Shown here one piece after another: positions 8,046 through 63,937 of a stretch of DNA of 64,000 nucleotides. The notes under the pieces were generated by a model. That model was not told the origin of the DNA. It searched no databases and was given only the letters and a program-made list of their open reading frames with translations. The position numbers and the translations under genes are program-made. The stretch comes from a virus: IMG/VR virus record IMGVR_UViG_3300028610_002873; one strand, 5' to 3'. Position 1 is the first letter of the stretch. Each line of letters begins with the position of its first letter.

Positions 8046-10412
8046 TTATTTTCCTATACCCAATCCGTTAGTTAAAAGTTCTGTTTTATTTAAAACTGTT
8101 CTTCCATTTGCTTCACTATTTTCAATCATTCCTTTTGTGACAGCTAATACTAAATCTTTATTTCTTAATCTAAATTCACCTTGTAAATTCACATTTGTTT
8201 GTTGAGATGCTTGCCCCTGTCTACCTTGATTGGCAGATAATTGTCTTATTTCACTCAATAAAGCATCTTCACTTGGGGTTTTAACAGATGCTTTTTGTTT
8301 TAATGTTTCAGTAGTAATTCTTTTAAAATTAAGATCAGCATTTAAATCACTATTATTTATTCTAGGTGTTACTGAAACTCCAATTCCAGCTAATGCATCT
8401 ATTCCTGCAATACCTGGAAGTGCTGATAAAGCTGATTTAATTCCACTTGTTGTTAAACCAAGTTTATCAAGAAATGAAGTTGGTAAAAAACCAACAAGTC
8501 CAGCAAATAAAATTTTAAGTGTGGATATAACTGCTTTGAATGGGAATAATAATGCTTGAATAATAGATGATCGTATTTTAAACAGAATACTTATTAATGG
8601 TTGTGCAAAAAAATCTTTTACTGAATTAAATGCGGATATGGCAGTATCCTTTATTTCTTTTCTAAAAATAAATAAAACTGCTCCAATTCCCGCTATTCCA
8701 GCAATTATTAATCCAATCGGGCTGAGTAGAAATGAAAAAAGACCAAAAGCTGCAACAAGAACAAATTTCATTACAGCAAATATTCCAAGTAAGACTGACC
8801 CCATTAAACTAAACAATCCAATTATCCCACTAATAGCACCGCCGATAACAAAAAATGCAATTCCAAGAAATCCTAAAATTGGTGCTGCAACGGCACCAAT
8901 GATAAGAATTTTTGCTGCAATTTTTCCAAAATCTTTTGCTGATAAACCAGTTAAATCAATAATTGGTTTTAAAAAATTACTAATTGTTTTAAAAGTATCT
9001 TTTGCTGTTGTTTTTATTTCTTTGAATCCTTCTTTAAATCCTTCTGCAAATAAAATTGATGAAATTAATAATCCTGCAAATTGATTATCTTTTAAATTTT
9101 TCATCTCTTTATTTAAATTTATTGTTTCACCACCAGCAAGTTGAAATCCTCTTACTAAAACTTGAATAAACTGTACTGATTTTTTTACAAGTGGTTCAAT
9201 CCCAAGAGCTAAAATTGCACCAATTTCAATTCCTAATCCTTCTGTAGCAGATTTTAAAAGTGTAAATTGGCCTATTAAACTTCTTAATCTAATTTTAGCC
9301 ATTAAAGTAGCTGAACCTGCTGCACCTAATAATTGAACTCGTAATGCAGTAATAAATGGAATAGTCCCTTCTGAAAGAATTTTATTAATTTCTTCTTGGC
9401 TTTTCCCTAATTTTTTAAATCCGGCAATTAAAAATCCTGAATTTTTGTTAGTAATTTTTACACTTCTACTAAATTGCGCATCAAAAGCACTAAAGGCCCC
9501 CGCGCCTCTTAATCCAAAAACTTCAAATGCAATTCTTGCTTTTTCAGCTGGATCTCGAATTGCAGCGATCTTTTTCGAAATGTTTGCCATAATAACAGGC
9601 ACTGGTCGAAGTTTAATTTGTCCATCAACTACTTCTTTCATTGCTCTAGCAAGACCTTCTTTTCCACCTAACGCTTTAAGTGCTAATTTACTAGGCTTAG
9701 TCAATCTGACTAAAGCATTTTTAAAAGCAGTTCCAGCAAGTGTACCTTTAATACCAGCATTTGAAATAATACCTAATGCAGCAGCAGTTTCTTCAAATGG
9801 AATTCCAAGTTGTTTTGCAGCTGGACCAGCAAGTTTTAAAGCATCTCCTAATTCAATCATGTTTGTATTAGTTCTTGCTGTCGCAAGGGCCAATACGTCT
9901 GCGACTCGAACGGCTTCTTTTGCTTCTAAACCAAATGCTCCTAATTGATTAACTGTAATTCTTGCTGAATCAGCCAAGGTAATTCCAGATGCAGCAGCTG
10001 CATCTAAAACGCCTGGGAGTGCAGCAATGACTTGTCGTTGATTTAATCCTGCTCTGGCAAGAAATTCTGCTCCTTCACCAGCTTGTTTTGCTGTAAAAAT
10101 TGTAGTCGCCCCAAGAAGTTTTGTTGTACTATTTAATTCTTTCATATCTTCATCAGTAGATAAAAGAATTGCCTGAACAGTTGCCATTTGCGCTTCAAAA
10201 CTTGCAAAAGTTTTAATAGCAGCAGCAGCTCCAATTGTAAGTGGTGCTAATCCAATTCCTGCTGAACGTAATCCTTGACCAACTCGACTTACTGCTTCAC
10301 TTGCTTTTCTGACTGAAGAACGAAAACTATTAAATTTTGCTTTAGTTCGTTGAAGGGAGCGTTCTGCACCAGTTGAGCTAAATCTTAAGATGGCATTTAA
10401 TTGAAAAGCCAT
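8046..10412 (-). CDS. tail tape measure protein, 788 aa
   Basis: The N-terminal half is Ala/Gly/Leu-rich and helical (TMP core-like: LGATTIFTAKQAGEGAEFLARAGL). Hydrophobic segments lie in the middle. Its position after the chaperone pair fits. Confidence 0.85.
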   Translation of the reverse strand: MAFQLNAILRFSSTGAERSLQRTKAKFNSFRSSVRKASEAVSRVGQGLRSAGIGLAPLTIGAAAAIKTFASFEAQMATVQAILLSTDEDMKELNSTTKLLGATTIFTAKQAGEGAEFLARAGLNQRQVIAALPGVLDAAAASGITLADSARITVNQLGAFGLEAKEAVRVADVLALATARTNTNMIELGDALKLAGPAAKQLGIPFEETAAALGIISNAGIKGTLAGTAFKNALVRLTKPSKLALKALGGKEGLARAMKEVVDGQIKLRPVPVIMANISKKIAAIRDPAEKARIAFEVFGLRGAGAFSAFDAQFSRSVKITNKNSGFLIAGFKKLGKSQEEINKILSEGTIPFITALRVQLLGAAGSATLMAKIRLRSLIGQFTLLKSATEGLGIEIGAILALGIEPLVKKSVQFIQVLVRGFQLAGGETINLNKEMKNLKDNQFAGLLISSILFAEGFKEGFKEIKTTAKDTFKTISNFLKPIIDLTGLSAKDFGKIAAKILIIGAVAAPILGFLGIAFFVIGGAISGIIGLFSLMGSVLLGIFAVMKFVLVAAFGLFSFLLSPIGLIIAGIAGIGAVLFIFRKEIKDTAISAFNSVKDFFAQPLISILFKIRSSIIQALLFPFKAVISTLKILFAGLVGFLPTSFLDKLGLTTSGIKSALSALPGIAGIDALAGIGVSVTPRINNSDLNADLNFKRITTETLKQKASVKTPSEDALLSEIRQLSANQGRQGQASQQTNVNLQGEFRLRNKDLVLAVTKGMIENSEANGRTVLNKTELLTNGLGIGK

Positions 10413-11590: not shown

Positions 11591-11609
11591 TGTTTTACAA
11601 TGTTATACA
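11591..11609. promoter_or_regulatory. TGTTATACA-type dyad (TGTTTTACA a TGTTATACA) upstream of the chaperone/TMP operon
   Basis: Direct dyad in the tube-chaperone intergenic region. It belongs to a recurring motif family. Confidence 0.5.
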
Positions 11610-14779: not shown

Positions 14780-14798
14780 AGTATAACAGTGTTTTACA
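14780..14798. promoter_or_regulatory. degenerate inverted TGTTATACA-type dyad (aGTATAACA g TGTTTTACA) 27 nt upstream of the sheath ATG
   Basis: Intergenic location; member of the motif family. Confidence 0.45.
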
Positions 14799-24341: not shown

Positions 24342-24360
24342 TGTTATACAGTGTTATACA
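24342..24360. promoter_or_regulatory. perfect direct dyad TGTTATACA g TGTTATACA, 20 nt upstream of the capsid ATG
   Basis: Read directly from the sequence; intergenic. Confidence 0.55.
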
Positions 24361-27445: not shown

Positions 27446-27464
27446 TGTTATACATTGTTATACA
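27446..27464. promoter_or_regulatory. perfect direct dyad TGTTATACA t TGTTATACA, 9 nt upstream of the protease ATG
   Basis: Read directly from the sequence. Confidence 0.55.
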
Positions 27465-32594: not shown

Positions 32595-32613
32595 TGTTAT
32601 ACAGTGTTATACA
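32595..32613. promoter_or_regulatory. perfect direct dyad TGTTATACA g TGTTATACA, 3 nt upstream of the terS-candidate ATG
   Basis: Read directly from the sequence. Confidence 0.55.
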
Positions 32614-34216: not shown

Positions 34217-34440
34217 TATAATAATTCCCTACCATCTAATCGATATTTATTTTTTGGATGAAACAATTCAATCTCTGGCCCTAACCATTTATTTGTCTTT
34301 TTATCCTTCAATCTAAATCTCTCATACATCCCATCTAAAAATGAACCCCAAACTAATTCATAACCGTCAAACTGTTCTAAAAATCGGTAAGCGTTAATCC
34401 ACCATTGACCAGTTCTTTTCATGCTACTTTTTTCTTCCAC
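34216..34440 (-). CDS. hypothetical protein, 74 aa
   Basis: ORF in the gene chain. Confidence 0.5.
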   Translation of the reverse strand: MEEKSSMKRTGQWWINAYRFLEQFDGYELVWGSFLDGMYERFRLKDKKTNKWLGPEIELFHPKNKYRLDGRELL

Positions 34441-34985
34441 ATTTTATTCATACATCCACGAATCTTTTCTGAACTTTCAACATAATCTAAATATTTTAAA
34501 GTATTTTCGATTATTTTATGTCCTAAAACGGTCTGAACTAAATGAATATCTCTAGATGAATCATAAAGTCTTACTCCTTGAGTATGCCTGAGTGAATGCA
34601 ATCCTTTATTTTTATTTGGTCTATATTGATCCCAAATTTGTCGGCATCTTCTAACAGATATTGGAAAAAGTTTTTGATTATCAGAGAAGTGTTTTGCGTA
34701 TTCTTTTAACTCATTAAAAAAGGGTTTGGGTAAAGGAATAGTTCTATCATTACTTCTTTTTCGCCCTTTTATAGTAATACATTCATCATTACCTAAATTT
34801 GATTTTAATATGTTAATTAATTCAATCCCTCTCGCGCCTGTAAAAAGACTAAGCCGCAACATGATTGAATCTCTTTCACCTTTATGGTTTTCAAGTAAAG
34901 TGAAAAGTTGATTTACTTCACTATCACTTAAAAATTTATTTTCAGTTAACCTAGAGTCTTTTTTATTAAAATTATTCATTTTCAA
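34419..34985 (-). CDS. short tyrosine recombinase (catalytic domain only, FimB/XerC-like size), 188 aa
   Basis: Catalytic signature: TGARGIE (R), HSLRHT (HxxR), LGHK (H) and LKYLDY (Y). Confidence 0.75.
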   Translation of the reverse strand: MKMNNFNKKDSRLTENKFLSDSEVNQLFTLLENHKGERDSIMLRLSLFTGARGIELINILKSNLGNDECITIKGRKRSNDRTIPLPKPFFNELKEYAKHFSDNQKLFPISVRRCRQIWDQYRPNKNKGLHSLRHTQGVRLYDSSRDIHLVQTVLGHKIIENTLKYLDYVESSEKIRGCMNKMWKKKVA

Positions 34986-35492: not shown

Positions 35493-35521
35493 ACTATAAC
35501 ACAATGTAATATGAATGTCAA
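35493..35521 (-). promoter_or_regulatory. near-consensus sigma70 promoter TTGACA-17-TATAGT (minus strand)
   Basis: TTGACA at 35521-35516 and TATAGT at 35498-35493. It matches the 33700 promoter at 28 of 31 positions, in inverted orientation. Confidence 0.65.
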
Positions 35522-45986: not shown

Positions 45987-46174
45987 AAAAGTATCCTTAA
46001 ACATCGAACTACTCTAGCTCTTTTTATTGAAGACAACGGACCCAATGCCGCACATACCTGTTCAATAACACCTGTCTCTTTCCATGCTTTTGCAACAGTC
46101 ATTTCTTTTCGACGACGATGCACCCGAAAATAATCACATGCTACTTTACGTCTTCGCCATTCTTTTCTAGTCAT
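45983..46174 (-). CDS. hypothetical basic protein, 63 aa
   Basis: 4-nt overlaps on both sides. Confidence 0.5.
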   Translation of the reverse strand: MTRKEWRRRKVACDYFRVHRRRKEMTVAKAWKETGVIEQVCAALGPLSSIKRARVVRCLRILL

Positions 46175-46566
46175 CTTGCACCTTTCAAAATTTGCTCAAT
46201 TCTTTGTTTACTAACCCCATATTTTTTACCTAGCTTACTCATAGTTGTTTTATGTTGAAGATGTAAAGCATATCGTCTTAGAATATCTTCCTTATGTTGT
46301 TTATCAATTTTCATCACACTATTTTGATGAGATGGTTTTACGCATTTTTTATCACCGCATTTTGAAGTTAGATGCCCATTATTAGAATAAGAATATGTTA
46401 GACTAAATAATAATTTTCTTACAGAACGAGTAGGAATACCACGAATATAAAATTCAGGACTATTATAACCATTAGTATGCCCAGTCCAATACCAATGTGG
46501 CTCTTTTTTTTCTACATACTTCCAAATTCTTTCCTGCCAGGGTTTTATTTTTGGTCCTCGTTTCAT
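46171..46566 (-). CDS. DNA-binding protein candidate: degenerate HNH_3-like N-terminus plus sigma70-region-4-like HTH, 131 aa
   Basis: The segment CGDKKCVKPSHQ resembles C-n--CvNP-H. The C-terminus LGKKYGVSKQRIEQILKGA is HTH-like. Confidence 0.45.
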   Translation of the reverse strand: MKRGPKIKPWQERIWKYVEKKEPHWYWTGHTNGYNSPEFYIRGIPTRSVRKLLFSLTYSYSNNGHLTSKCGDKKCVKPSHQNSVMKIDKQHKEDILRRYALHLQHKTTMSKLGKKYGVSKQRIEQILKGAR

Positions 46567-53115: not shown

Positions 53116-53481
53116 TCAATCTATAATCCGGCCACATCCCCCACACACTTTCAAATCTGGATTACGATAATGTGGAGCCAGTTCTTTATGTTGACAACCA
53201 TTATTAATTTTCTTCAACATCTTCGAATATTCATAGTCTTCAAATTTAAAGTCTGGGACCTTATTAAGTTTCTTTTTTTTATTTAATTGCTCAAACATAT
53301 GCTTTTCACATACCAGTGGTGGTCCAAAACTATTCTGACTATGGGTAAGTAATTCACACTTAGGACAACTGGCAATTTCAGCGGCTACTCTTTTCTCTAA
53401 TTCACCATAATCAAAATGAATATGTTGATTAATTTTTTTCTTACTGAAAAAATTTTTCAACCAATTGGTCAGCTTTTTCAT
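53116..53481 (-). CDS. leader-family protein 1 (N-terminus NWLKNFFSKKKINQHIHFDYGELEKRV), Cys-rich, 121 aa
   Basis: It shares its first ~30 aa and about 100 nt of DNA with 56279..56476. Confidence 0.55.
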   Translation of the reverse strand: MKKLTNWLKNFFSKKKINQHIHFDYGELEKRVAAEIASCPKCELLTHSQNSFGPPLVCEKHMFEQLNKKKKLNKVPDFKFEDYEYSKMLKKINNGCQHKELAPHYRNPDLKVCGGCGRIID

Positions 53482-54221: not shown

Positions 54222-54441
54222 TTTTTATCTCCTGCGTTTTATAATTTCTTTGGCTTTTTCTAACCGATCCGTTTGTTCTCTTTTCTAAAAACTTCATAAA
54301 ATCTAAAATACGTAGATAATCGTTTAGATCAAATTCTGGAGTAGATTTTTTCCCAATAGGAATGTACTCATTCGCCAGTTTAATCAATCGACTAAATCGT
54401 ATTGATTTGTTTTTAAAACGAATACGAATTTTTTTAGTCAT
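54214..54441 (-). CDS. small basic protein, 75 aa, possible ribbon-helix-helix DNA binder
   Basis: It is the first gene downstream of the repeat array. The N-terminus KKIRIRFKNKSIRFSRLIKLANEY has a strand-helix character. The RHH call is speculative. Confidence 0.4.
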   Translation of the reverse strand: MTKKIRIRFKNKSIRFSRLIKLANEYIPIGKKSTPEFDLNDYLRILDFMKFLEKRTNGSVRKSQRNYKTQEIKND

Positions 54442-54460
54442 CGCGCACCTCTTTTAAATA

Positions 54461-54899
54461 ACTTTACTTTACATTACTTCACAAAACTACACTCTACATT
54501 ACAAAACCTGACAGCACTTTCTTCACTTTACAAAACAGCACAGAACAGCACGCTACTACACTCCACGATACTTCACTTTCTTTACTTTACAAAACAGCAC
54601 AAGACTTCACAGCACACAACGTAACAATACGCTACTTTCTTTACTTCACAATACTCTACGAGACATGACTCAACGATACACTACTCTACTTTCTTTACTT
54701 CACTTTACTGAACCGGACGCTACGATACGAAACATGACGTTACTTTCTTTACTTCACCCCACATCACAAAACAACACATCACTTGACAATACTTTCATTA
54801 CTTTACTTCACAATACTACACACTACTTCACATTATTTCACTTTCATTACTTTACAAAACAGAACCAAACTATACACAACTACACAACACAATAAATTT
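54461..54899. repeat. G-depleted periodic repeat array: about 8 units of 49-59 bp headed by yACTTTCwTyACTTyAC
   Basis: Perfect 17-mers TACTTTCTTTACTTCAC lie at 54633, 54687 and 54741, exactly 54 bp apart. Degenerate heads lie at 54461, 54515, 54574, 54790 and 54839. By my count there are only 26 G in 440 nt on the plus strand. Confidence 0.85.
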
Positions 54900-56282: not shown

Positions 56283-56476
56283 TTCTTTTCCTGCATCATC
56301 CTTTTTATCAATATCTTTTTTTCTAAATCTATTTGATTAATTATAGCTGAGGCGTCCAAAGTCGGGAGAACTGGCAATTTTATCGCAATTACCCTTTTCT
56401 CTAATTCACCATAATCAAAATGAATATATTGGTCATTAATCTTTTTCTTTCTGAAAATTTTTTTCAACCAATTCAT
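56279..56476 (-). CDS. leader-family protein 3 (MNWLKKIFRKKKINDQYIHFDYGELEKRV), 65 aa
   Basis: I place the start at ATG 56476, which overlaps the stop of the 55-aa ORF (ATGA). The track extends to 56533. Confidence 0.5.
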   Translation of the reverse strand: MNWLKKIFRKKKINDQYIHFDYGELEKRVIAIKLPVLPTLDASAIINQIDLEKKILIKRMMQEKK

Positions 56477-57285: not shown

Positions 57286-57544
57286 TTGGTTCTCCTGTTT
57301 GGCCCAATTCGTGCCAATTTCAATTAAATTGTTTCAATTTGATTGATATTACATTGTATTATGTCTTGTCAAGTAAATGGTGCGAATTTACAGTGTTTCC
57401 TTGCCCACTATCAAAACCTTAGACAATCCTCAACTTGGGCATACCGGGGGGGTGCCATACTATTGTAATCATTGAATAATATAGTTCAACTACATTAGTT
57501 ACAATAAGCCCTTTAAAAAAACGTGTTAGTTCAATAAGTTATCC

Positions 57545-57561
57545 TGTCTAAAGTTTAGACA
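57545..57561. promoter_or_regulatory. perfect palindrome TGTCTAAA g TTTAGACA (second operator-like motif)
   Basis: Related copies lie at 60565-60581 (TGTCAAACTTTTAGACA) and 63896-63912 (TGTTAAACTTTTAAACA). Confidence 0.45.
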
Positions 57562-58213
57562 CCCTGCTGGACTGCTGATCTCGTAATGATATCAAATAGA
57601 TATTCAATATGCGTATTGAATATTCAATTCAAAACATAGTCTATGAGCTACAATATAATGCGCCATAATATACTGTAACACAATGTAATATATGGACTAA
57701 TACCTAATCCTTAATTACATCAACCCAATCGAACCGCTGTATTGACATTGGATAAAATCAAACTAACTACTGATGCCCGTCCGTGTCCACTACAGGGCAT
57801 AGTTTCCGGGTATACCTATAAGCGGTAGTGCTGAGTCACGGTATGATAGGGCTATTGCAGTCTGAGTCTGGTCGAATTCAAATTGAATCAAATTACTTTA
57901 TATTGTGTCAATTTAAACATGTGTCCTCAGCGACACAATAAGAGAGAGAAATCGATGTCTCTTTACAGCGCTTGGTAAGGATTATCGGGCCCATTGTTCA
58001 ATTATCAAGTCTATTGTTTAAGTATGTATATGTATATACCATAGGTATTGCATGTATATGTATATACATCTAGGAATTAACAGTCCTATAGTCTGATACC
58101 AATTGACTTCTTAACATGCCTTACAATCGATCCTTATAGGGTCTATACTGTATTCTATTACACTGTATTATCTAATTTAGATTGTCTTAATTGTTTGTTT
58201 TTATTGGATTATC

Positions 58214-58232
58214 TGTATAACACTGTTATACA
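58214..58232. promoter_or_regulatory. perfect palindrome TGTATAACA c TGTTATACA
   Basis: It is flanked by 17-bp direct repeats TTAGATTGTCTTAATTG at 58177-58193 and 58257-58273. Confidence 0.55.
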
Positions 58233-58455
58233 CTTGATTAGTATTTAGATCATTAATTAGATTGTCTTAATTGAATTGCTTATAGTTTAGATACCATTCA
58301 ATTGTATTGATTAATCTATTATTTAAAATCTTATTATGCTTTATTATCTAATAGTCCTACACTATTAGTAATATTAAATAACTATGTATTTTTAGCTGTA
58401 TAAATAGCTAAATATCAGTAATTAGCTAAGTTAGTAGCTATTTGTTATTGATCTA

Positions 58456-58794
58456 TTATTTAAAATAGCCCGGATCAATTATAAATTGCTTAGATTTAAC
58501 AACTTGATCTAAAAATAACTTAGCATTGTTAATCATAGTGAGTGTAGTATTATGTTTACAATTAGTAGTTCCGTTTGTTTCATTACATTGGTAACATGGA
58601 GTAAATCCGAAATGTATTGCTAAACTTGGCCAGTTCCAATCTGTTTGAACTAGTTTACCTCTACCGTCTAAATGTCTGATTGTATAACACCCGAAATATT
58701 CGAATTCTAATGAGATAAGATTGGATTGACTTTTTTTGATTTCTTTTTGTCTTAATAGTCGTTTTATTAATTGTCTTAATTGTGAATATTTCAT
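58456..58794 (-). CDS. hypothetical Cys-containing protein, 112 aa
   Basis: It is the last gene before the ORF-free region. Confidence 0.45.
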   Translation of the reverse strand: MKYSQLRQLIKRLLRQKEIKKSQSNLISLEFEYFGCYTIRHLDGRGKLVQTDWNWPSLAIHFGFTPCYQCNETNGTTNCKHNTTLTMINNAKLFLDQVVKSKQFIIDPGYFK

Positions 58795-60194: not shown

Positions 60195-60371
60195 TTATAA
60201 TACTCCATCATTTAAAGCTAACTGTAATTTATATCGTCTATATGATTCCCTATATAATTCTAAATATCTCTTTTTTTCATTTTCATTAGGAGTCACTTGA
60301 GATCGTCTATATAGCTCGTTACATGACTTTTTAAATCTTTCAATTATCTGTTTTTGCTTTTCATTATTCAT
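60195..60371 (-). CDS. small basic protein, 58 aa
   Basis: Hand translation: MNNEKQKQIIERFKKSCNELYRRSQVTPNENEKKRYLELYRESYRRYKLQLALNDGVL. It is the first ORF after control-region copy 1. Confidence 0.45.
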   Translation of the reverse strand: MNNEKQKQIIERFKKSCNELYRRSQVTPNENEKKRYLELYRESYRRYKLQLALNDGVL

Positions 60372-60411: not shown

Positions 60412-60606
60412 ATTGTAATTGCAACGAGCATGCCAGTTTTGTATAACAGTGTTATACACATAATCATTGGATATTTTGTATAACAGTGCTATACATGATT
60501 GATTAAAATGACAAAAATTGTAATGGTGTATAACACTGTTATACAATATCGAGCACTTATAAACTGTCAAACTTTTAGACAGTGTATAATACTTAGACAC
60601 TATAAC
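60412..60606. repeat. control-region repeat, copy 1 (about 195 bp) with three TGTATAACA-n-TGTTATACA palindromes
   Basis: Palindromes lie at 60440-60458, 60477-60495 (one mismatch) and 60527-60545. A second motif lies at 60565-60581. The region aligns with 63743-63937. Confidence 0.8.
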
Positions 60607-60607
60607 A
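60599..60607 (-). promoter_or_regulatory. extended -10 candidate TGtTATAGT preceded by the ATTACAacGTGT core
   Basis: It has the same core as the 33700 and 35493 promoters but lacks a good -35. Confidence 0.35.
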
Positions 60608-60670
60608 CGTTGTAATAACAAGTGTTTTTCCCGGCCTGAATAGCACAATAGTTTAAACACTACATGAAAG

Positions 60671-60880
60671 TTAATCATACTTAGAACGCCTAACTTTCAA
60701 GCCAAAAACAGATAATCGTAATTTAATGTCTGTTATCTGCAATTGTAAATCTTCAAGTAAATCTATACTCGGTTCCCTCACATAAATTGAATTACGCAAA
60801 CGTAAACGTATTGCTTTTAAATTTTCTTTTAATCTTTCAATTTGTAATTGTTTTTCTGATTCACTCATATCACTCCTCAC
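60671..60880 (-). CDS. hypothetical coiled-coil protein, 69 aa
   Basis: ORF in the gene chain. Confidence 0.45.
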   Translation of the reverse strand: MRSDMSESEKQLQIERLKENLKAIRLRLRNSIYVREPSIDLLEDLQLQITDIKLRLSVFGLKVRRSKYD

Positions 60881-61109
60881 TTTCAGACTTAATTTTAGAT
60901 ATTAATTTTTCAAATGGTTTTTGAGCGCATGAACATGATTTTAAACTACCTTGCACTATAGTTAATTGATTAAACATAAAATCACAAAAATTTGCCTCAA
61001 TAATTCTAATCATATCAACTGAACATTCAATATTATTATCATCGGCATCACATTTAATATGAATTAACATCTGTTTCAAAGTTTTTGAGGTTCCTCTAGG
61101 CTTATTCAT
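60870..61109 (-). CDS. hypothetical protein, 79 aa
   Basis: ORF in the gene chain. Confidence 0.45.
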   Translation of the reverse strand: MNKPRGTSKTLKQMLIHIKCDADDNNIECSVDMIRIIEANFCDFMFNQLTIVQGSLKSCSCAQKPFEKLISKIKSESEE

Positions 61110-61112
61110 AAT

Positions 61113-61586
61113 TTATTCCTTTCCTTTATTTTTCTTTTCTAAAAATTCCAAATAAGGAATTCTCTTTTCTTTTTCTGACAAATAAACAGCAGAACATAAA
61201 ATTGTTTTAATAGCATGTTTTTGATCCAAGCCCGAATCAATTGCTTCGTAACCTAATAACTGAATGTGTTTCAATGCATTTCTAAAATCCTTTTTTTTCT
61301 GTGCTCGACTTTTTAAATCGCCTGAAAAATTCGAATCAAGATTTTTAAATAGATCAATTGCATTCAATCCATTTTTAACATCTGAAAAAGGCTTATCATC
61401 AATTACGGAATGTAATTTAATATTATTGTAACTAGTTACTTCGCCGCATTGAGGGCAAGCCGACCGCATCTCAAATCGAATCACTCGACCGAAAAATGGC
61501 AAGTAGGCCGTCTTAAAAGGTTTTATCTTAAAAGCATAAAAGAAAAAATCAGCTATAAAATTGATAAGCGGTCTAAAAATTTTCAT
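61113..61586 (-). CDS. hypothetical protein, 157 aa (CPQC motif)
   Basis: Its ATG overlaps the stop of the 55-aa ORF (ATGA). Confidence 0.5.
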   Translation of the reverse strand: MKIFRPLINFIADFFFYAFKIKPFKTAYLPFFGRVIRFEMRSACPQCGEVTSYNNIKLHSVIDDKPFSDVKNGLNAIDLFKNLDSNFSGDLKSRAQKKKDFRNALKHIQLLGYEAIDSGLDQKHAIKTILCSAVYLSEKEKRIPYLEFLEKKNKGKE

Positions 61587-61750
61587 TTTCTTTTTCCTTT
61601 AATTTTAAATAATTTTTTAATTCCCTCAATTATAATTTGTACAATTTCATAATTATTAGTACTTGCTACACATTCATCATTTACCATTATATGAAATCTT
61701 TCTTGATGATAAATAGGATCATCTTTTCTATCAATTATTTCAATTTTCAT
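61583..61750 (-). CDS. small protein, 55 aa
   Basis: Hand translation: MKIEIIDRKDDPIYHQERFHIMVNDECVASTNNYEIVQIIIEGIKKLFKIKGKRK. A strong RBS, GAGGTG, is present. Confidence 0.5.
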   Translation of the reverse strand: MKIEIIDRKDDPIYHQERFHIMVNDECVASTNNYEIVQIIIEGIKKLFKIKGKRK

Positions 61751-61782
61751 TTTACACCTCTTTTTTCATTTTCAAACTACCT

Positions 61783-61829
61783 TTTAAAAATTGGGTGCCG
61801 GTACAAAGGTAGTTTGAAAACCGGCACCC
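61783..61829 (-). terminator. rho-independent terminator candidate: GGGTGCCGG-19 nt loop-CCGGCACCC followed by AATTTTTAAAA
   Basis: A 9-bp all-GC-rich stem lies 38 nt after the stop of the 397-aa gene. A T-tract follows on the minus strand. Confidence 0.6.
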
Positions 61830-61866
61830 TTGATTAATTGAAATTGCAATTACAACTAATCAAAAC

Positions 61867-63060
61867 TTAATCGACATCACCTGTTATAGTGAAAGATTTA
61901 ATCGCTGTATTCGGTATCGCTAAGTGCCAATCTTTCAAAATTAAATCAGCATGTTCACGCCCACTATGACTAATTTTACCTTTCACATAATTCTTTTTTT
62001 GAATACCATATTGCGCTTTATTCGGCCTATTAGGTCCGGCTTGTAAAGTCATAGGTCTGAATTCCGGCAACCAACGCCTATCATGTTTTGGCGTTTTATC
62101 AGCTTTTAATTCTTGTGTGTGTTTAATTGGAATAAAAAACCATTCGCCTTGACGTTTTATTTTTAAGCCTTTCATTTCTGCTTTTCTCACTTCTTTAGGC
62201 TTAAGCGATGCATATGCTGCTTTAATAGAACTAACCATAACTGGTAACTCGACTAAAAACGCATTGAATACATTATGTTTAATTTCACGCCTATCAATAT
62301 CGAATAAGAAATATTTTTTATTAACTTTAAATAAACTTGCACCCGTGTAATGTGTTTCAAGAATTCGATATTTAGTTTTATTTTCTTTTCGATCATAATA
62401 TTCCTCTTTTCGCTTTACTATTTCATTAGGACCGCGTTCTAAAATCTCAATATCATCCAATTTTAAGCCGGCTTCATGAAAAACATTAAAAGGCAACATT
62501 GGAATAAGATTCGATAACCTTGCTTGAATCTCAGTTTGCTCATTATTATCCTTTTCATGACCAAAACAAACAGTTCGACCAATCAAAGACAATACTGAAC
62601 TATTAGCCAAAAAGAATGAATTATTATTAAGTTTGATTTTTTGTGCGATTAGATCAGACCTTAAAACCCTGACCTTAAGTGAATGGACACAATGAGGATT
62701 ATCTAATTTTTCTTGTAATTCTTGCAAGGTAAAATCACATACTACAATATAATTCTTTTTAACAGCCTTGATTAATTTTCTTAAATCAGCCTTGTTACTC
62801 CTATCATTTTTTGAATTCAAACGAAGTGAATCAGTAATAACCGTTTTATAAAACAATTTTTGATTTTCAATAAAATATCGACCGAATTTTTTATTAGTTT
62901 CATCTTTCAAAAACGCTTGAATTACTTTATCAATATCATCCTTTGGTTTTTTAAATTTAAATTTAAGTTTTTTAAATTTAGAATCCATTAATTTTGACAT
63001 GCCATCTGATAATTTTTCACTTTTCATTTTCTTTCCCTTTCTTTTATAAATCGAATTCAA
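61867..63060 (-). CDS. hypothetical protein, 397 aa
   Basis: It is the largest ORF of the early region. C-terminal pattern KRQGEWFFIPI...HSGREHADLIL; I cannot name a family with confidence. Confidence 0.55.
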   Translation of the reverse strand: MNSIYKRKGKKMKSEKLSDGMSKLMDSKFKKLKFKFKKPKDDIDKVIQAFLKDETNKKFGRYFIENQKLFYKTVITDSLRLNSKNDRSNKADLRKLIKAVKKNYIVVCDFTLQELQEKLDNPHCVHSLKVRVLRSDLIAQKIKLNNNSFFLANSSVLSLIGRTVCFGHEKDNNEQTEIQARLSNLIPMLPFNVFHEAGLKLDDIEILERGPNEIVKRKEEYYDRKENKTKYRILETHYTGASLFKVNKKYFLFDIDRREIKHNVFNAFLVELPVMVSSIKAAYASLKPKEVRKAEMKGLKIKRQGEWFFIPIKHTQELKADKTPKHDRRWLPEFRPMTLQAGPNRPNKAQYGIQKKNYVKGKISHSGREHADLILKDWHLAIPNTAIKSFTITGDVD

Positions 63061-63634
63061 CGCCAGTTTTCATTAATTTAGTTGAATTTCTGGCGACTCG
63101 ATTTGTTTTTTCTCTTTTCTTTTTCTCATAACCTTTATTATCTAAATCATTTTTAATCACTTCTTTTTTTAATTCTTTCATTTGTAATTTAGTGAATACA
63201 GCACCTAAAGCGCGATATTCTTTTATTGTTTTTTTCAATTCTTTGATTTGATTTTTTCTGTTTTTGATTAATTTTTTTTGCGCATTTTTTCGGCCTAATT
63301 GCAATTCAATATGAAAAATTGATTCATATAAGGATTTTAAAGCCGAATGTTCAAAATCATTCAAACTTTGACGTATACAAACAATATGATCAATTTTGAT
63401 TTTTAATTGTTTTAATAAACTACGCATTGCTGATTGATGCCCACTAGTAGATGGAGAATAAGAATAATCATTAAATACGACTTTTCCTTTGATTTTCTTA
63501 ACAAAAACCCACCAATTATAAGAATCAGCCTGACATATCTCTGGATTGAAAGTACAATTACCCGTACTTATTTTCCAAATGTTAGCCATTTTATAATATT
63601 TTAAACTTCCACAAACTCCATATCCATAACTCAT
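63044..63634 (-). CDS. hypothetical protein, 196 aa
   Basis: N-terminal pattern ADSYNWWVFVKKIKGKVVFNDYSYSPSTSGHQ, with a basic coiled-coil C-terminus. It is the first gene after control-region copy 2. Confidence 0.55.
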   Translation of the reverse strand: MSYGYGVCGSLKYYKMANIWKISTGNCTFNPEICQADSYNWWVFVKKIKGKVVFNDYSYSPSTSGHQSAMRSLLKQLKIKIDHIVCIRQSLNDFEHSALKSLYESIFHIELQLGRKNAQKKLIKNRKNQIKELKKTIKEYRALGAVFTKLQMKELKKEVIKNDLDNKGYEKKKREKTNRVARNSTKLMKTGVEFDL

Positions 63635-63654
63635 AAAAATTCTCCTTATTATAT

Positions 63655-63679
63655 GAGGCCAGATTTATTGTCTGGCCTC
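63655..63679. promoter_or_regulatory. GC-rich hairpin GAGGCCAGA-tttattg-TCTGGCCTC in the leader of the 196-aa gene
   Basis: A perfect 9-bp stem lies 21 nt upstream of the ATG, next to the AAGGAG RBS. Confidence 0.45.
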
Positions 63680-63742
63680 ACTTAATTTCTTTTCTCATGT
63701 TAATCTTTCTTTTTTAGATTGATTAACTACCTTTGTTGATAA

Positions 63743-63937
63743 ATTGTAATTGCAACGAGCATGCCAGTTTTGTATAACAGTGTTATACACGTAATTACTG
63801 AATATTTTGTATAACACTGTTATACACGATTAGTTAAAATGACAAAAATTTGTATTAAACATTATCAGACAATGTAATATCAACCACTTATAAACTGTTA
63901 AACTTTTAAACAGTGTAAAATCCTTAAACACTAAATT
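63743..63937. repeat. control-region repeat, copy 2 (about 195 bp)
   Basis: Palindromes lie at 63771-63789 and 63808-63826. The third site is degenerate. The second motif lies at 63896-63912. Confidence 0.8.

Follow-up and report, generated by a model that had tools for sequence, protein, structure and literature searches.

The window, a stretch of 64,000 nucleotides from an uncultured tailed phage (a myovirus with a genome of 106 kb), contains a control module that is present twice and encloses a cassette of early genes:

60412–60602, minus strand: module copy 1, upstream of a gene for a 58-aa protein (60195–60371), in ungapped alignment with copy 2
60671–61750, minus strand: four small ORFs of 55, 157, 79 and 65/69 aa at the end of the cassette
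61780–61863, minus strand: internal intergenic element, an AT-rich palindrome (61830–61863) followed by a GC-rich terminator hairpin (61793–61829) and a T run
61867–63027, minus strand: 386-aa protein, from a large family of hypothetical proteins
63044–63634, minus strand: 196-aa protein, the first cassette gene, with an N-terminal domain rich in beta structure and a C-terminus that is long and helical
63654–63680, unstranded: 11-bp GC-rich leader hairpin just upstream of the Shine–Dalgarno sequence of the 196-aa gene (z = −6.75)
63743–63933, minus strand: module copy 2, upstream of the 196-aa gene, in ungapped alignment with copy 1

A duplicated module with clustered palindromes

The original prediction described a duplicated region of about 195 bp at this locus, and formal alignment of the two copies confirms it as a single gap-free block of 191 nt with 34 differences (82.2% identity). 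A repeat search returned matches of 108 nt (92%) and 58 nt (88%), both at an offset of 3331. Similarity extends well past the palindromes described below, as non-palindromic DNA aligns too. The ends of the module are sharp and lie inside two intergenic gaps, with a Shine–Dalgarno sequence and then a same-strand gene after each copy, and each copy heads a block of minus-strand genes, as had been proposed. No homologue of the module sequence was found in any collection searched. The sequence family is new, while its architecture is ordinary and that of conventional phage gene control. The features within the two copies, together with one related site outside them, are as follows:

60412–60459, identical to 63743–63790, minus strand: 48-nt block with 100% identity, comprising O1 plus AAACTGGCATGCTCGTTGCAATTACAAT
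60440–60458, unstranded: candidate operator O1 of copy 1, TGTATAACAGTGTTATACA, perfect
60477–60495, unstranded: candidate operator O2 of copy 1, one mismatch, in the TGCTATACA arm
60527–60545, unstranded: candidate operator O3 of copy 1, perfect, overlapping −10/+1 of the candidate promoter TTGACA-16-TATTGT
60563–60583, unstranded: upstream dyad of copy 1, ACTGTC-N9-GACAGT, with TTGACA (60570–60565) on the coding strand
63771–63789, unstranded: candidate operator O1 of copy 2, perfect
63808–63826, unstranded: candidate operator O2 of copy 2, perfect
63850–63875, minus strand: 26-nt patch at the O3 position of copy 2, reading ATATTACATTGT-CT-GATAAT on the coding strand, promoter-core-like
63894–63914, unstranded: upstream dyad of copy 2, ACTGTT-N9-AACAGT, with TTAACA on the coding strand
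58214–58232, unstranded: solitary sixth palindrome, perfect, within a 1170-nt non-coding gap (57286–58455)

Identity along the module is patchy, running through 100%, 85%, 31% and 88%. The identical block, which is O1 plus 28 nt and forms the final 48 nt of the module, has a probability of about 0.0009 of showing zero differences at the rate of the flanks and a longest-run permutation p of 0.05; its plus strand also contains TTGCAA-17-TATAAC. At the other extreme, 18 of the 26 positions in the patch differ (31% identity, the random level), compared with 85–88% identity in its flanks; outside the patch only 16 of 165 positions differ (90.3% identity). The third site of copy 2 had been described as decayed, which would imply point mutation. 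A block at random-level identity between similar flanks, with a recurrent 12-mer inside it, instead leads us to conclude from the alignment that this position is a patch replacement. The 12-mer, ATATTACATTGT, recurs exactly at 35501, 57346 and 57680, all promoter-like intergenic sites, and together with the −10 it has the same arrangement in the patch as in the promoters at 35.5 kb and 57.7 kb.

The palindrome shared by the copies, TGTATAACAnTGTTATACA, occurs three times in copy 1 and twice in copy 2. Its positions, and the starts 37 and 50 bp apart in copy 1 (spacers of 18 and 31 bp), agree with the original prediction, from which the sixth palindrome at 58214 was absent. Five of these six palindromes match all 18 specified bases, which argues for selection on dyad symmetry, and the remaining one has a single mismatch. 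When up to three mismatches are allowed, TGTATAACAnTGTTATACA has 11 matches in the window versus 0.08 expected from shuffles, and no complex 11-mer in the window is more over-represented than this motif. It is built from a 9-bp unit, TGT-ATA-ACA, itself a pseudo-dyad, with two units set 10 bp (one helical turn) apart. All 12 sites of the motif family are intergenic.

The dyad farther upstream differs between copies by a paired C/G to T/A change, from which covariation under selection had been proposed. The paired difference is real; only one compensatory event separates the two sequences, and the evidence from it is weak, with p = 0.034–0.046 in a mutation simulation before allowing for the choice of feature. 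We rejected a terminator or stable hairpin here, as the dyad is no more stable as RNA than shuffled sequence (−9.7 kcal/mol, z = −1.35 in copy 1; −4.1 kcal/mol, z = +0.51 in copy 2). On the coding strand the G-to-A change turns a perfect −35-like TTGACA into TTAACA. The candidate promoter of copy 1 matches the consensus at 10 of 12 positions; candidates in copy 2 are TTAACA-16-TATTAC, or GATAAT with no −35. In a scan for sigma-70-type promoters, promoter-like sites were no commoner than in shuffles, and these assignments are by consensus only and ambiguous. Clear sigma-70-type promoters are present elsewhere in the phage, for example TTGACA-17-TATAGT at 35.5 kb.

The 9-bp unit upstream of late genes

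The same 9-bp unit recurs in front of late genes, a feature that the original prediction had missed:

32595–32613, minus strand: late-type site TGTATAACAcTGTATAACA, 3 nt before the ATG of a 217-aa gene in the terS position (preceding the large terminase)
27446–27464, minus strand: late-type site, 9 nt before the ATG of a 597-aa prohead-protease fusion
24342–24360, minus strand: late-type site, 20 nt before the ATG of the 404-aa major head protein
14780–14798, unstranded: weak inverted site before the tail sheath gene, reading TGTAAAACAcTGTTATACT on the coding strand
11591–11609, minus strand: late-type site TGTATAACAtTGTAAAACA, in the gap that precedes a 294-aa ORF

In the direct-type sites, TGTATAACAnTGTATAACA, the unit is arranged head-to-tail, with only the 3-bp core of the second unit flipped (ATA..ATA in late sites versus ATA..TAT in early ones). 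Four such sites are present in the window versus 0.00 expected, and they lie 3–56 nt upstream of four late genes, all four on the coding strand. A further weak inverted site precedes the lysis genes and falls outside the window. The relative L133, whose major head protein is 76% identical, has a late-type site (2566–2584) at the orthologous position upstream of that gene, 41 nt from the ATG, and the spacer around it has diverged.

The strict directionality of the late-type sites and their proximity to start codons suit a promoter or RNA element no less than they suit an operator. The 9-bp unit could be a phage-specific promoter element, with TGTATAACAnTGTATAACA acting as a 19-bp, −35-less late promoter for host RNA polymerase and a phage factor (compare T4 TATAAATA); in that case the early palindromes would be copies placed back to back and firing both ways, or a sink for the factor. 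We consider this unlikely, if the most serious of the alternatives. Two sites in the relative are, like the four direct-type sites in the window, in coding orientation, and there is no consistent −35 upstream of direct-type sites. The genes so marked (terS-position, protease, head and 294-aa, with weak inverted sites before sheath and lysis) recall those served by T4 late promoters, and the genome encodes T4-like recombination genes (RecA/UvsX-like and SbcCD/gp46-47-like). However, although the unit includes TATAAC, the conserved T that closes a −10 hexamer is missing from both TATAAC and TATACA, a normal leader would not fit where a site ends just 3 nt ahead of the ATG, and no sigma-like or late-activator protein was detected. 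Nor would a promoter require perfect symmetry at five of six early sites, or clusters of two to three sites.

The motifs could instead act as RNA, forming 8-bp hairpins in early leaders and, as tandem units near late ribosome-binding sites, binding a translational regulator or a processing endonuclease. The late sites adjoin a Shine–Dalgarno sequence or start codon and are strand-specific, and RNA folding of the operator region is strong (z = −4.9), as it would be for any palindrome. However, the late sites here lie anywhere from 3 to 56 nt from the ATG, with 41 nt for the site in the relative, and the early palindromes keep perfect arms where G-U pairs would serve. A single variant precedes both the sheath and the lysis genes, and its orientation with respect to the coding strand is opposite in the two cases, which suits recognition as DNA. 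A search of Rfam with the window from 56.6 to 64 kb and beyond gave no family match (one chance snoRNA hit, E = 0.84). We regard action as RNA as improbable.

The enclosed cassette and its relatives

The content of the cassette had been predicted essentially correctly, except that the 397-aa ORF is better read as 386 aa (its start is the ATG at 63027, and M1 is invariant) and the last small ORF as 65 aa. The proposed internal terminator is real: the hairpin GGGTGCCGG...CCGGCACCC is followed by a T run, and the intergenic fold has z = −4.2. The leader hairpin before the 196-aa gene reads as a terminator on the plus strand. The four small ORFs gave no family hits. Confident structure models of the 196-aa and 386-aa proteins matched no known fold. 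The 386-aa protein has more than 360 homologues, and the two genes form a conserved pair that belongs to the stable core of the phage family.

Five relatives carry this pair among small early genes together with two to four promoter-like modules of 40–120 nt. One of them (L017) has a duplicated 118-nt region with one copy directly upstream of the pair, and the other four (L096, L097, L111 and L113) have three to four copies of CTAAAGT-N15-CGATAAGTTA. That consensus is absent from the window and, conversely, the TGTATAACA palindromes are absent from these relatives. In distant marine relatives (L022 and L057; also L018, L031 and L032), arrays of 12-bp tandem repeats lie on both sides of the 386-aa homologue.

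These arrays, and a conserved pair with no known fold, raise the possibility that the repeats are replication or partition sites bracketing the gene of the protein that acts on them, as in P1 repA incC/incA, P4 ori/crr and tubC/parC; a unit in both direct and inverted arrangement also recalls RepE/RepA-type initiators. However, this proposal would leave the sites before six late genes or operons unexplained, the replication module is located elsewhere and has no sites of the motif family, and neither protein resembles the initiator, ParB/ParR, actin or tubulin families. It strikes us as quite improbable. An iteron-type origin or centromere was rejected, as the palindromes, at 37 and 50 bp, are not in helical phase and the two proteins match no known fold or family.

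It is slightly less probable still that the direct repeats are a functionless by-product of cassette acquisition, through promoter-region recombination or a mobile insertion. The cassette has its own terminator and directly repeated DNA on both sides, and the patchy identity of the copies resembles mosaic recombination or gene conversion. However, both copies retain perfect operators and are correctly placed before genes, the 196/386-aa pair belongs to the core of the phage family, and a recombinational origin would be compatible with present function. A mobile cassette of the transposon or integron type was rejected, since none of the six cassette proteins has a recombinase or transposase domain. 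Loss of the cassette between the repeats, also proposed, is possible in principle through the 48-nt identical block, but no deletion variant was seen: the cassette is intact in all four contigs (from three samples), and breakage of the assemblies at the repeats is the only signal.

A putative early and late regulon

On balance we think it slightly more likely than not that the two copies are paralogous promoter–operator modules heading successive early units, within a regulon of at least 13 sites served by one putative factor. Copy 2 would drive the 196-aa and 386-aa genes as far as the internal terminator, and copy 1 the 58-aa gene with the small genes that follow. One sequence-specific factor is predicted to bind the 19-bp palindromes, and the placement of two 9-bp units 10 bp apart points to a pair of symmetric dimers, or to a dimer of dimers. 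Because two to three palindromes overlap the candidate promoters or follow closely downstream, occupancy would be expected to shut off the early units. Because the unit, with its core flipped, also lies directly upstream of the main late genes, one factor could couple early shut-off with late-gene control. In a bolder version, which we doubt, core orientation in the second unit would set early repression (ATA..TAT) or late activation (ATA..ATA) by one factor, and the 196/386-aa pair might be DNA-binding machinery; it would then form a class of its own, new among phage regulators or replication/partition proteins.

A search for the factor covered 95 proteins, either early or adjacent (some 3.2 kb of the genome lies outside the data), and gave no HTH or RHH hit; the sole exception was an HNH homing-endonuclease-like ORF. 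The small proteins that the original prediction put forward as binders yielded no DNA-binding domain hit. A 188-aa integrase-like ORF is the only hint of a lysogenic lifestyle. In unrelated prophages, an RHH-like gene is preceded by an identical 19-mer; in IMG/VR, matches to this 19-mer are near the background level, and the window has no homologue of that gene.

The value of these findings is as an entry point rather than a new principle. They provide a regulatory map for a large phage lineage that is uncultured and otherwise lacks annotation, with a temporal programme that is directly testable through a single 19-mer. The map comprises two control modules for early genes, one solitary operator and six sites at late genes, each built from the 9-bp unit. 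They also flag a widespread gene pair, 196/386-aa, that is consistently found amid repeated DNA resembling binding sites.

The original prediction likened the palindromes to tripartite operators. As in lambdoid OR/OL (cI/Cro), near-identical dyad sites cluster in a promoter region and the whole cluster occurs twice, a few kilobases apart, heading early operons. The comparison is otherwise loose. Lambdoid sites are 17 bp with spacers of 3–7 bp, whereas those here are 19 bp with spacers of 18 and 31 bp, and copy 2 has only two. The phage also has no divergent repressor/cro pair and no adjacent HTH protein, its flanking genes lie on the same strand (the only reverse ORF, of 72 aa and beyond the window, has no Shine–Dalgarno sequence), and its unit marks late genes as well.

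P1, a myovirus of about 100 kb, has intergenic C1 repressor operators, single or paired and in varied orientation, at many operons, as well as Lpa-dependent late promoters. The resemblance to the C1 network lies in one recognition sequence at many intergenic sites of a myovirus of this size; the C1 operator is an asymmetric 17-mer unrelated in sequence to the palindrome described here, and no homologues of C1, Coi or Lpa were detected in the phage. RHH operators (those of omega of pSM19035, MetJ and Arc) consist of short sub-sites in direct or inverted order. Like them, the sites here use a short pseudo-symmetric unit at helical-turn spacing in either orientation, although the window, unlike those systems, has no RHH protein. 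Finally, p4 of phi29 binds repeated sites, represses early promoters and switches on late transcription. Its sites lie in one compact divergent region, and sequence and protein are unrelated to those of this phage; by analogy, a single binder of repeated sites could likewise serve the early/late switch proposed here.

The duplicated module and its internal elements

The original prediction of a duplicated control region bracketing an early gene cassette holds at the level of the alignment: a repeat search of the window returned two repeat blocks sharing one offset of 3331 nt, and MAFFT together with a direct count resolved them into one ungapped 191-nt alignment with 34 differences. The features concerned are these.

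Copy 1: 60412-60602, minus (coding) strand; control module with the 19-bp palindromes, or operators, O1, O2 and O3
Copy 2: 63743-63933, minus (coding) strand; control module with O1 and O2
Cassette: minus-strand genes between the copies; 196-aa and 386-aa proteins, an internal terminator and four small ORFs
Solitary operator: 58214-58232; a sixth perfect 19-bp palindrome

The palindromes in the two copies lie where they were first placed, and the solitary operator had been missed. Matches to the palindrome with at most three mismatches number 11 versus 0.08 expected, and among complex 11-mers in the window its motif shows the strongest over-representation.

Identity between the copies is strongly patchy, running in coding-strand order from 88% (58 nt) through 31% (a 26-nt patch) and 85% (59 nt) to 100% (48 nt). 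The identical block comprises operator O1 and AAACTGGCATGCTCGTTGCAATTACAAT; 48 identical positions have P ~0.0009 at the substitution rate of the flanks, and a permutation of the longest run gives p = 0.05. Either tighter constraint or recent homogenisation could account for such a block. A purely passive duplication, with no function of its own, is a less likely reading of the module pair. Searches of IMG/VR, GTDB genomes and INPHARED returned no homologue of the module's sequence, and the 22-nt conserved block 3' of O1 does not occur in IMG/VR.

The third operator of copy 2 was previously described as decayed; its position is better described as a patch replacement. Here copy 2 has 26 nt that match copy 1 only at random level, between well-conserved flanks and with no change in length; on the coding strand the patch reads ATATTACATTGT-CT-GATAAT. 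Exact copies of the 12-mer ATATTACATTGT (63869-63880 in copy 2) are found three more times in the window (35501-35512, 57680-57691 and 57346-57357), each time in promoter-like intergenic DNA. A textbook promoter at 35.5 kb, TTGACA-17-TATAGT, has the 12-mer as its spacer, and the layout at 57.7 kb is TTAGTC-17-TACAGT; wherever the 12-mer is on the same strand, a -10-like hexamer begins 2 bases 3' of it. At the position of O3, copy 2 therefore carries another element that looks functional. The core of the 12-mer, ATTACAnTGT, and the operator core ATAACAnTGTTAT are one base apart in each half.

A second palindrome was proposed to covary between the copies, and the compensatory pair is genuine (ACTGTC-N9-GACAGT versus ACTGTT-N9-AACAGT), although it represents a single event between two sequences. 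When the observed 16 substitutions (12 transitions) were placed at random, an intact stem with one or more compensatory pairs arose in 3.4-4.6% of simulation runs, a rate that makes no correction for the feature having been chosen after it was seen. The RNA hairpins of this dyad are no more stable than shuffles (-9.7 kcal/mol, z = -1.35; -4.1 kcal/mol, z = +0.51). The pattern is only suggestive, and the dyad may be a protein site.

The dyad also overlaps promoter-like sequence. On the coding strand its right arm in copy 1 holds a perfect TTGACA with TATTGT 16 nt 3', the best promoter-like site of the module (10/12 matches), and O3 covers the -10/+1 region of this site. In copy 2 the compensatory-pair change turns TTGACA into TTAACA, and the candidates there are TTAACA-16-TATTAC or the GATAAT of the patch without a -35. 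On the opposite strand, both copies have TTGCAA-17-TATAAC within the 100% identical block. Judged from its sequence, the phage clearly uses sigma-70-type promoters; a consensus scan found promoter-like sites no commoner than in shuffles, and promoter assignment inside the modules is ambiguous.

Further repeats and hairpins surround copy 2. The 10-mer AACTACCTTT or its complement occurs three times in the window (0.24 expected), at 61775-61784 (+), 61805-61814 (-) and 63725-63734 (+), and two more copies were seen by eye just 5' of copy 2, beyond the window (L011, a contig stretch of the same phage, 9537-9560). These copies lie around copy 2 and the internal terminator, and those at the terminator can form an alternative 11-bp stem; AACTACCTTT resembles an anti-Shine-Dalgarno sequence and its complement a Shine-Dalgarno sequence. 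Just past the window end, the 430-nt non-coding stretch 5' of copy 2 (L011 9267-9700) holds an unusual C-rich tract (CCCCCCTCTCCCCC), a hairpin CTGTGTC-TTTTTT-GACACAG and a terminator-like hairpin at 9566-9585.

A 9-bp unit at early and late genes

Each operator consists of two inverted copies of a 9-bp unit, TGT-ATA-ACA, and the same unit recurs among the late genes.

Late-type and weak sites built from the 9-bp unit
32613, coding strand: head-to-tail (direct) site TGTATAACAnTGTATAACA
27464, coding strand: direct site TGTATAACAnTGTATAACA
24360, coding strand: direct site TGTATAACAnTGTATAACA
11609, coding strand: direct site TGTATAACAnTGTATAACA
14780-14798: weak inverted site AGTATAACAnTGTTTTACA, 5' of the sheath gene
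20552 of L094 (same phage, outside the window): weak inverted site AGTATAACAnTGTTTTACA, 5' of a 124-aa gene and the holin

The direct sites (0.00 expected) all lie on the coding strand, and the weak inverted form was found only in the two occurrences listed. All unit sites are intergenic; the late ones end 3 to 56 nt 5' of start codons and precede the terS-position gene, the prohead protease, the major head protein, the sheath gene, a 294-aa ORF and the lysis block. The unit has a pseudo-dyad symmetry of its own (TGT-N3-ACA), so only the 3-bp core of the second unit distinguishes the inverted from the direct arrangement: all six early sites have TAT there, and the four direct late sites have ATA (or AAA). 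In a relative whose major head protein is 76% identical (IMGVR_UViG_3300025018_000113), a 98.7-kb contig of which 33 kb was read, a late-type site 5' of that gene is kept within an otherwise diverged spacer, and there are two further direct-type sites.

We lean, with moderate confidence, towards a model in which the modules are a paralogous promoter-operator pair within a regulon of at least 13 sites, bound by one putative factor that would link the early and late programmes. In the main alternative, which we consider unlikely, the unit would be a directional promoter element specific to the phage: the direct-type sites are strictly oriented with the coding strand and have no -35 boxes, as that would predict, but the early sites are clustered and have perfect dyad symmetry. 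Every palindrome has a right arm (TGTTATACA) similar to the extended -10 of the 35.5-kb promoter (TGTTATAGT), although the conserved final T is missing. Action at the RNA level is a less likely reading of the unit. Origin or partition sites are likewise a less likely identity, and no unit sites occur in the replication module.

A search for the putative factor turned up no regulator: among 95 early and adjacent proteins Pfam gave no helix-turn-helix (HTH) or RHH family except one Sigma70_r4 match, and PHROGs gave no relevant match in the remaining modules. The Sigma70_r4 match (131 aa, 46174-46566) was rejected as the regulator; with an HNH endonuclease-like N-terminus and a sigma-70 region-4-like HTH, it is probably a homing endonuclease. 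The small proteins originally put forward as DNA-binding candidates have no match in Pfam, PHROGs or NCBIfam. The exact palindrome occurs on 10 IMG/VR contigs, seven of which belong to one unrelated prophage family with the site 5' of an RHH-like gene; the product of that gene was rejected too, as the window has no homologue. In a degenerate IMG/VR scan the background was ~5 matches per specific 18-mer and matches to the 19-mer were near it, which does not establish that the 19-mer is conserved across phages. GTDB genomes scanned for double palindromes yielded one unrelated chromosomal contig, from an Obscuribacterales MAG (GC 54%), with three perfect 25-bp palindromes TCTTGTATAACAnTGTTATACAAGA around a 124-aa ORF beside enolase (L110 1567-2142); their core equals the phage operator core, in an unrelated bacterial-chromosome context. 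A literature search for the motif returned primers and unrelated sequences only.

The solitary operator lies in a 1170-nt non-coding gap (57286-58455) with no Rfam match, several sigma-70-like promoters and a terminator-like hairpin at 57920-57937. It is flanked by 14-mers ACAATTAAGACAAT (58181-58194 and 58261-58274), which recur once more at 58770. An operator-like dyad with three mismatches, AGTATAACCATGTTATACG, lies outside the window (L152 18080-18140, same phage), just 5' of the strong TTGACA-17-TACAAT promoter at the head of the opposite-strand gene block.

The cassette, its phage and its relatives

The window comes from a myovirus-like uncultured phage encoding tail sheath, tape measure, portal, prohead protease and large terminase, with GC ~30% and every gene on the minus strand. 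Exact-protein look-ups placed it on a 106,127-nt ENA contig, and coordinates from two look-ups close into a 105,993-bp circular map, the rest of which was read through cluster look-ups except for ~3.2 kb at contig positions 45625-48859. In the direction of transcription the order starts with primase-helicase, PolA, 5'-3' exonuclease, RecA, SbcCD and some small genes, followed by a 735-nt non-coding gap with copy 2, the cassette, copy 1 and ~27 kb of small early genes, then terminase and structural genes, tail fibres, lysis genes and finally a short opposite-strand gene block. A near-identity search of the region against INPHARED phages gave no match, and the large terminase is <28% identical to that of any catalogued phage.

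Several other features of the window were recorded. Early proteins with Pfam matches include Fic, PagL (lipid A deacylase), dUTPase and an IS66 TnpB-like domain, the PagL match hinting at a possible diderm host; a short integrase-like ORF (188 aa) lies at 34422-34985. A paralogous small-protein family starting M-x-NWLKKFFSKKK (53363-53466, 56365-56473 and about 55763, 45106 and 55603) includes a 109-nt DNA repeat with 85% identity. Directly 5' of the ATG at 54441, a 458-nt non-coding stretch (54442-54899) consists of irregular G/T-rich 8-12-nt repeats (GTGAAGTAAAG, TGTGTAGT and similar) with strong coding-strand skew.

Within the cassette, the protein first called at 397 aa has a better start at 63027 (386 aa), which has a Shine-Dalgarno sequence, is the gene callers' choice and is the invariant M1 of the alignment. 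At E <= 0.001 the 386-aa protein has 362 homologues; every one is hypothetical, and their contigs are phage-like and reach 171 kb. For this protein AlphaFold gives a confident model (pLDDT 87), to which Foldseek matched no PDB entry (best E = 0.22) and a single viral one without a name. The 196-aa protein has 17 matches including itself and a model (pLDDT 91) with no Foldseek fold match. In all relatives examined the two genes sit side by side. The 386-aa gene is followed by an AT-rich palindrome, a good terminator hairpin and then the four small ORFs; no cassette protein, these four included, matches Pfam, PHROGs or NCBIfam.

The 48-nt identical block could serve as a recombination substrate. 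No cassette-deletion contig turned up: the cassette is intact in each of the four contigs, which come from three samples. Breaks in the Logan assembly coincide exactly with both copies, as a repeat longer than the k-mer would produce, and are not evidence of variants.

The layout of the module, unlike its sequence, recurs in relatives. One of them (L017) has a duplicated 118-nt region of 73% identity, 2.9 kb apart, with one copy directly 5' of the 196/386-aa pair. In four others (L096, L097, L111 and L113) a promoter-like consensus, CTAAAGT-N15-CGATAAGTTA, is present three or four times within the early region; the window lacks this consensus. Distant marine relatives have 12-bp tandem-repeat arrays (TTTACTACAGTT or TTTACTAGAGAT, 6-10 copies) on both sides of the 386-aa homologue (L022 1826-1904 and 3568-3634; L057 2388-2460 and 3997-4125). 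Together these cases make repeated regulatory DNA around the gene pair a lineage-wide theme. The architecture is of a known kind, and its new details, of moderate interest, are the sequence family, the split between direct late and inverted early sites, and the fold-novel gene pair.
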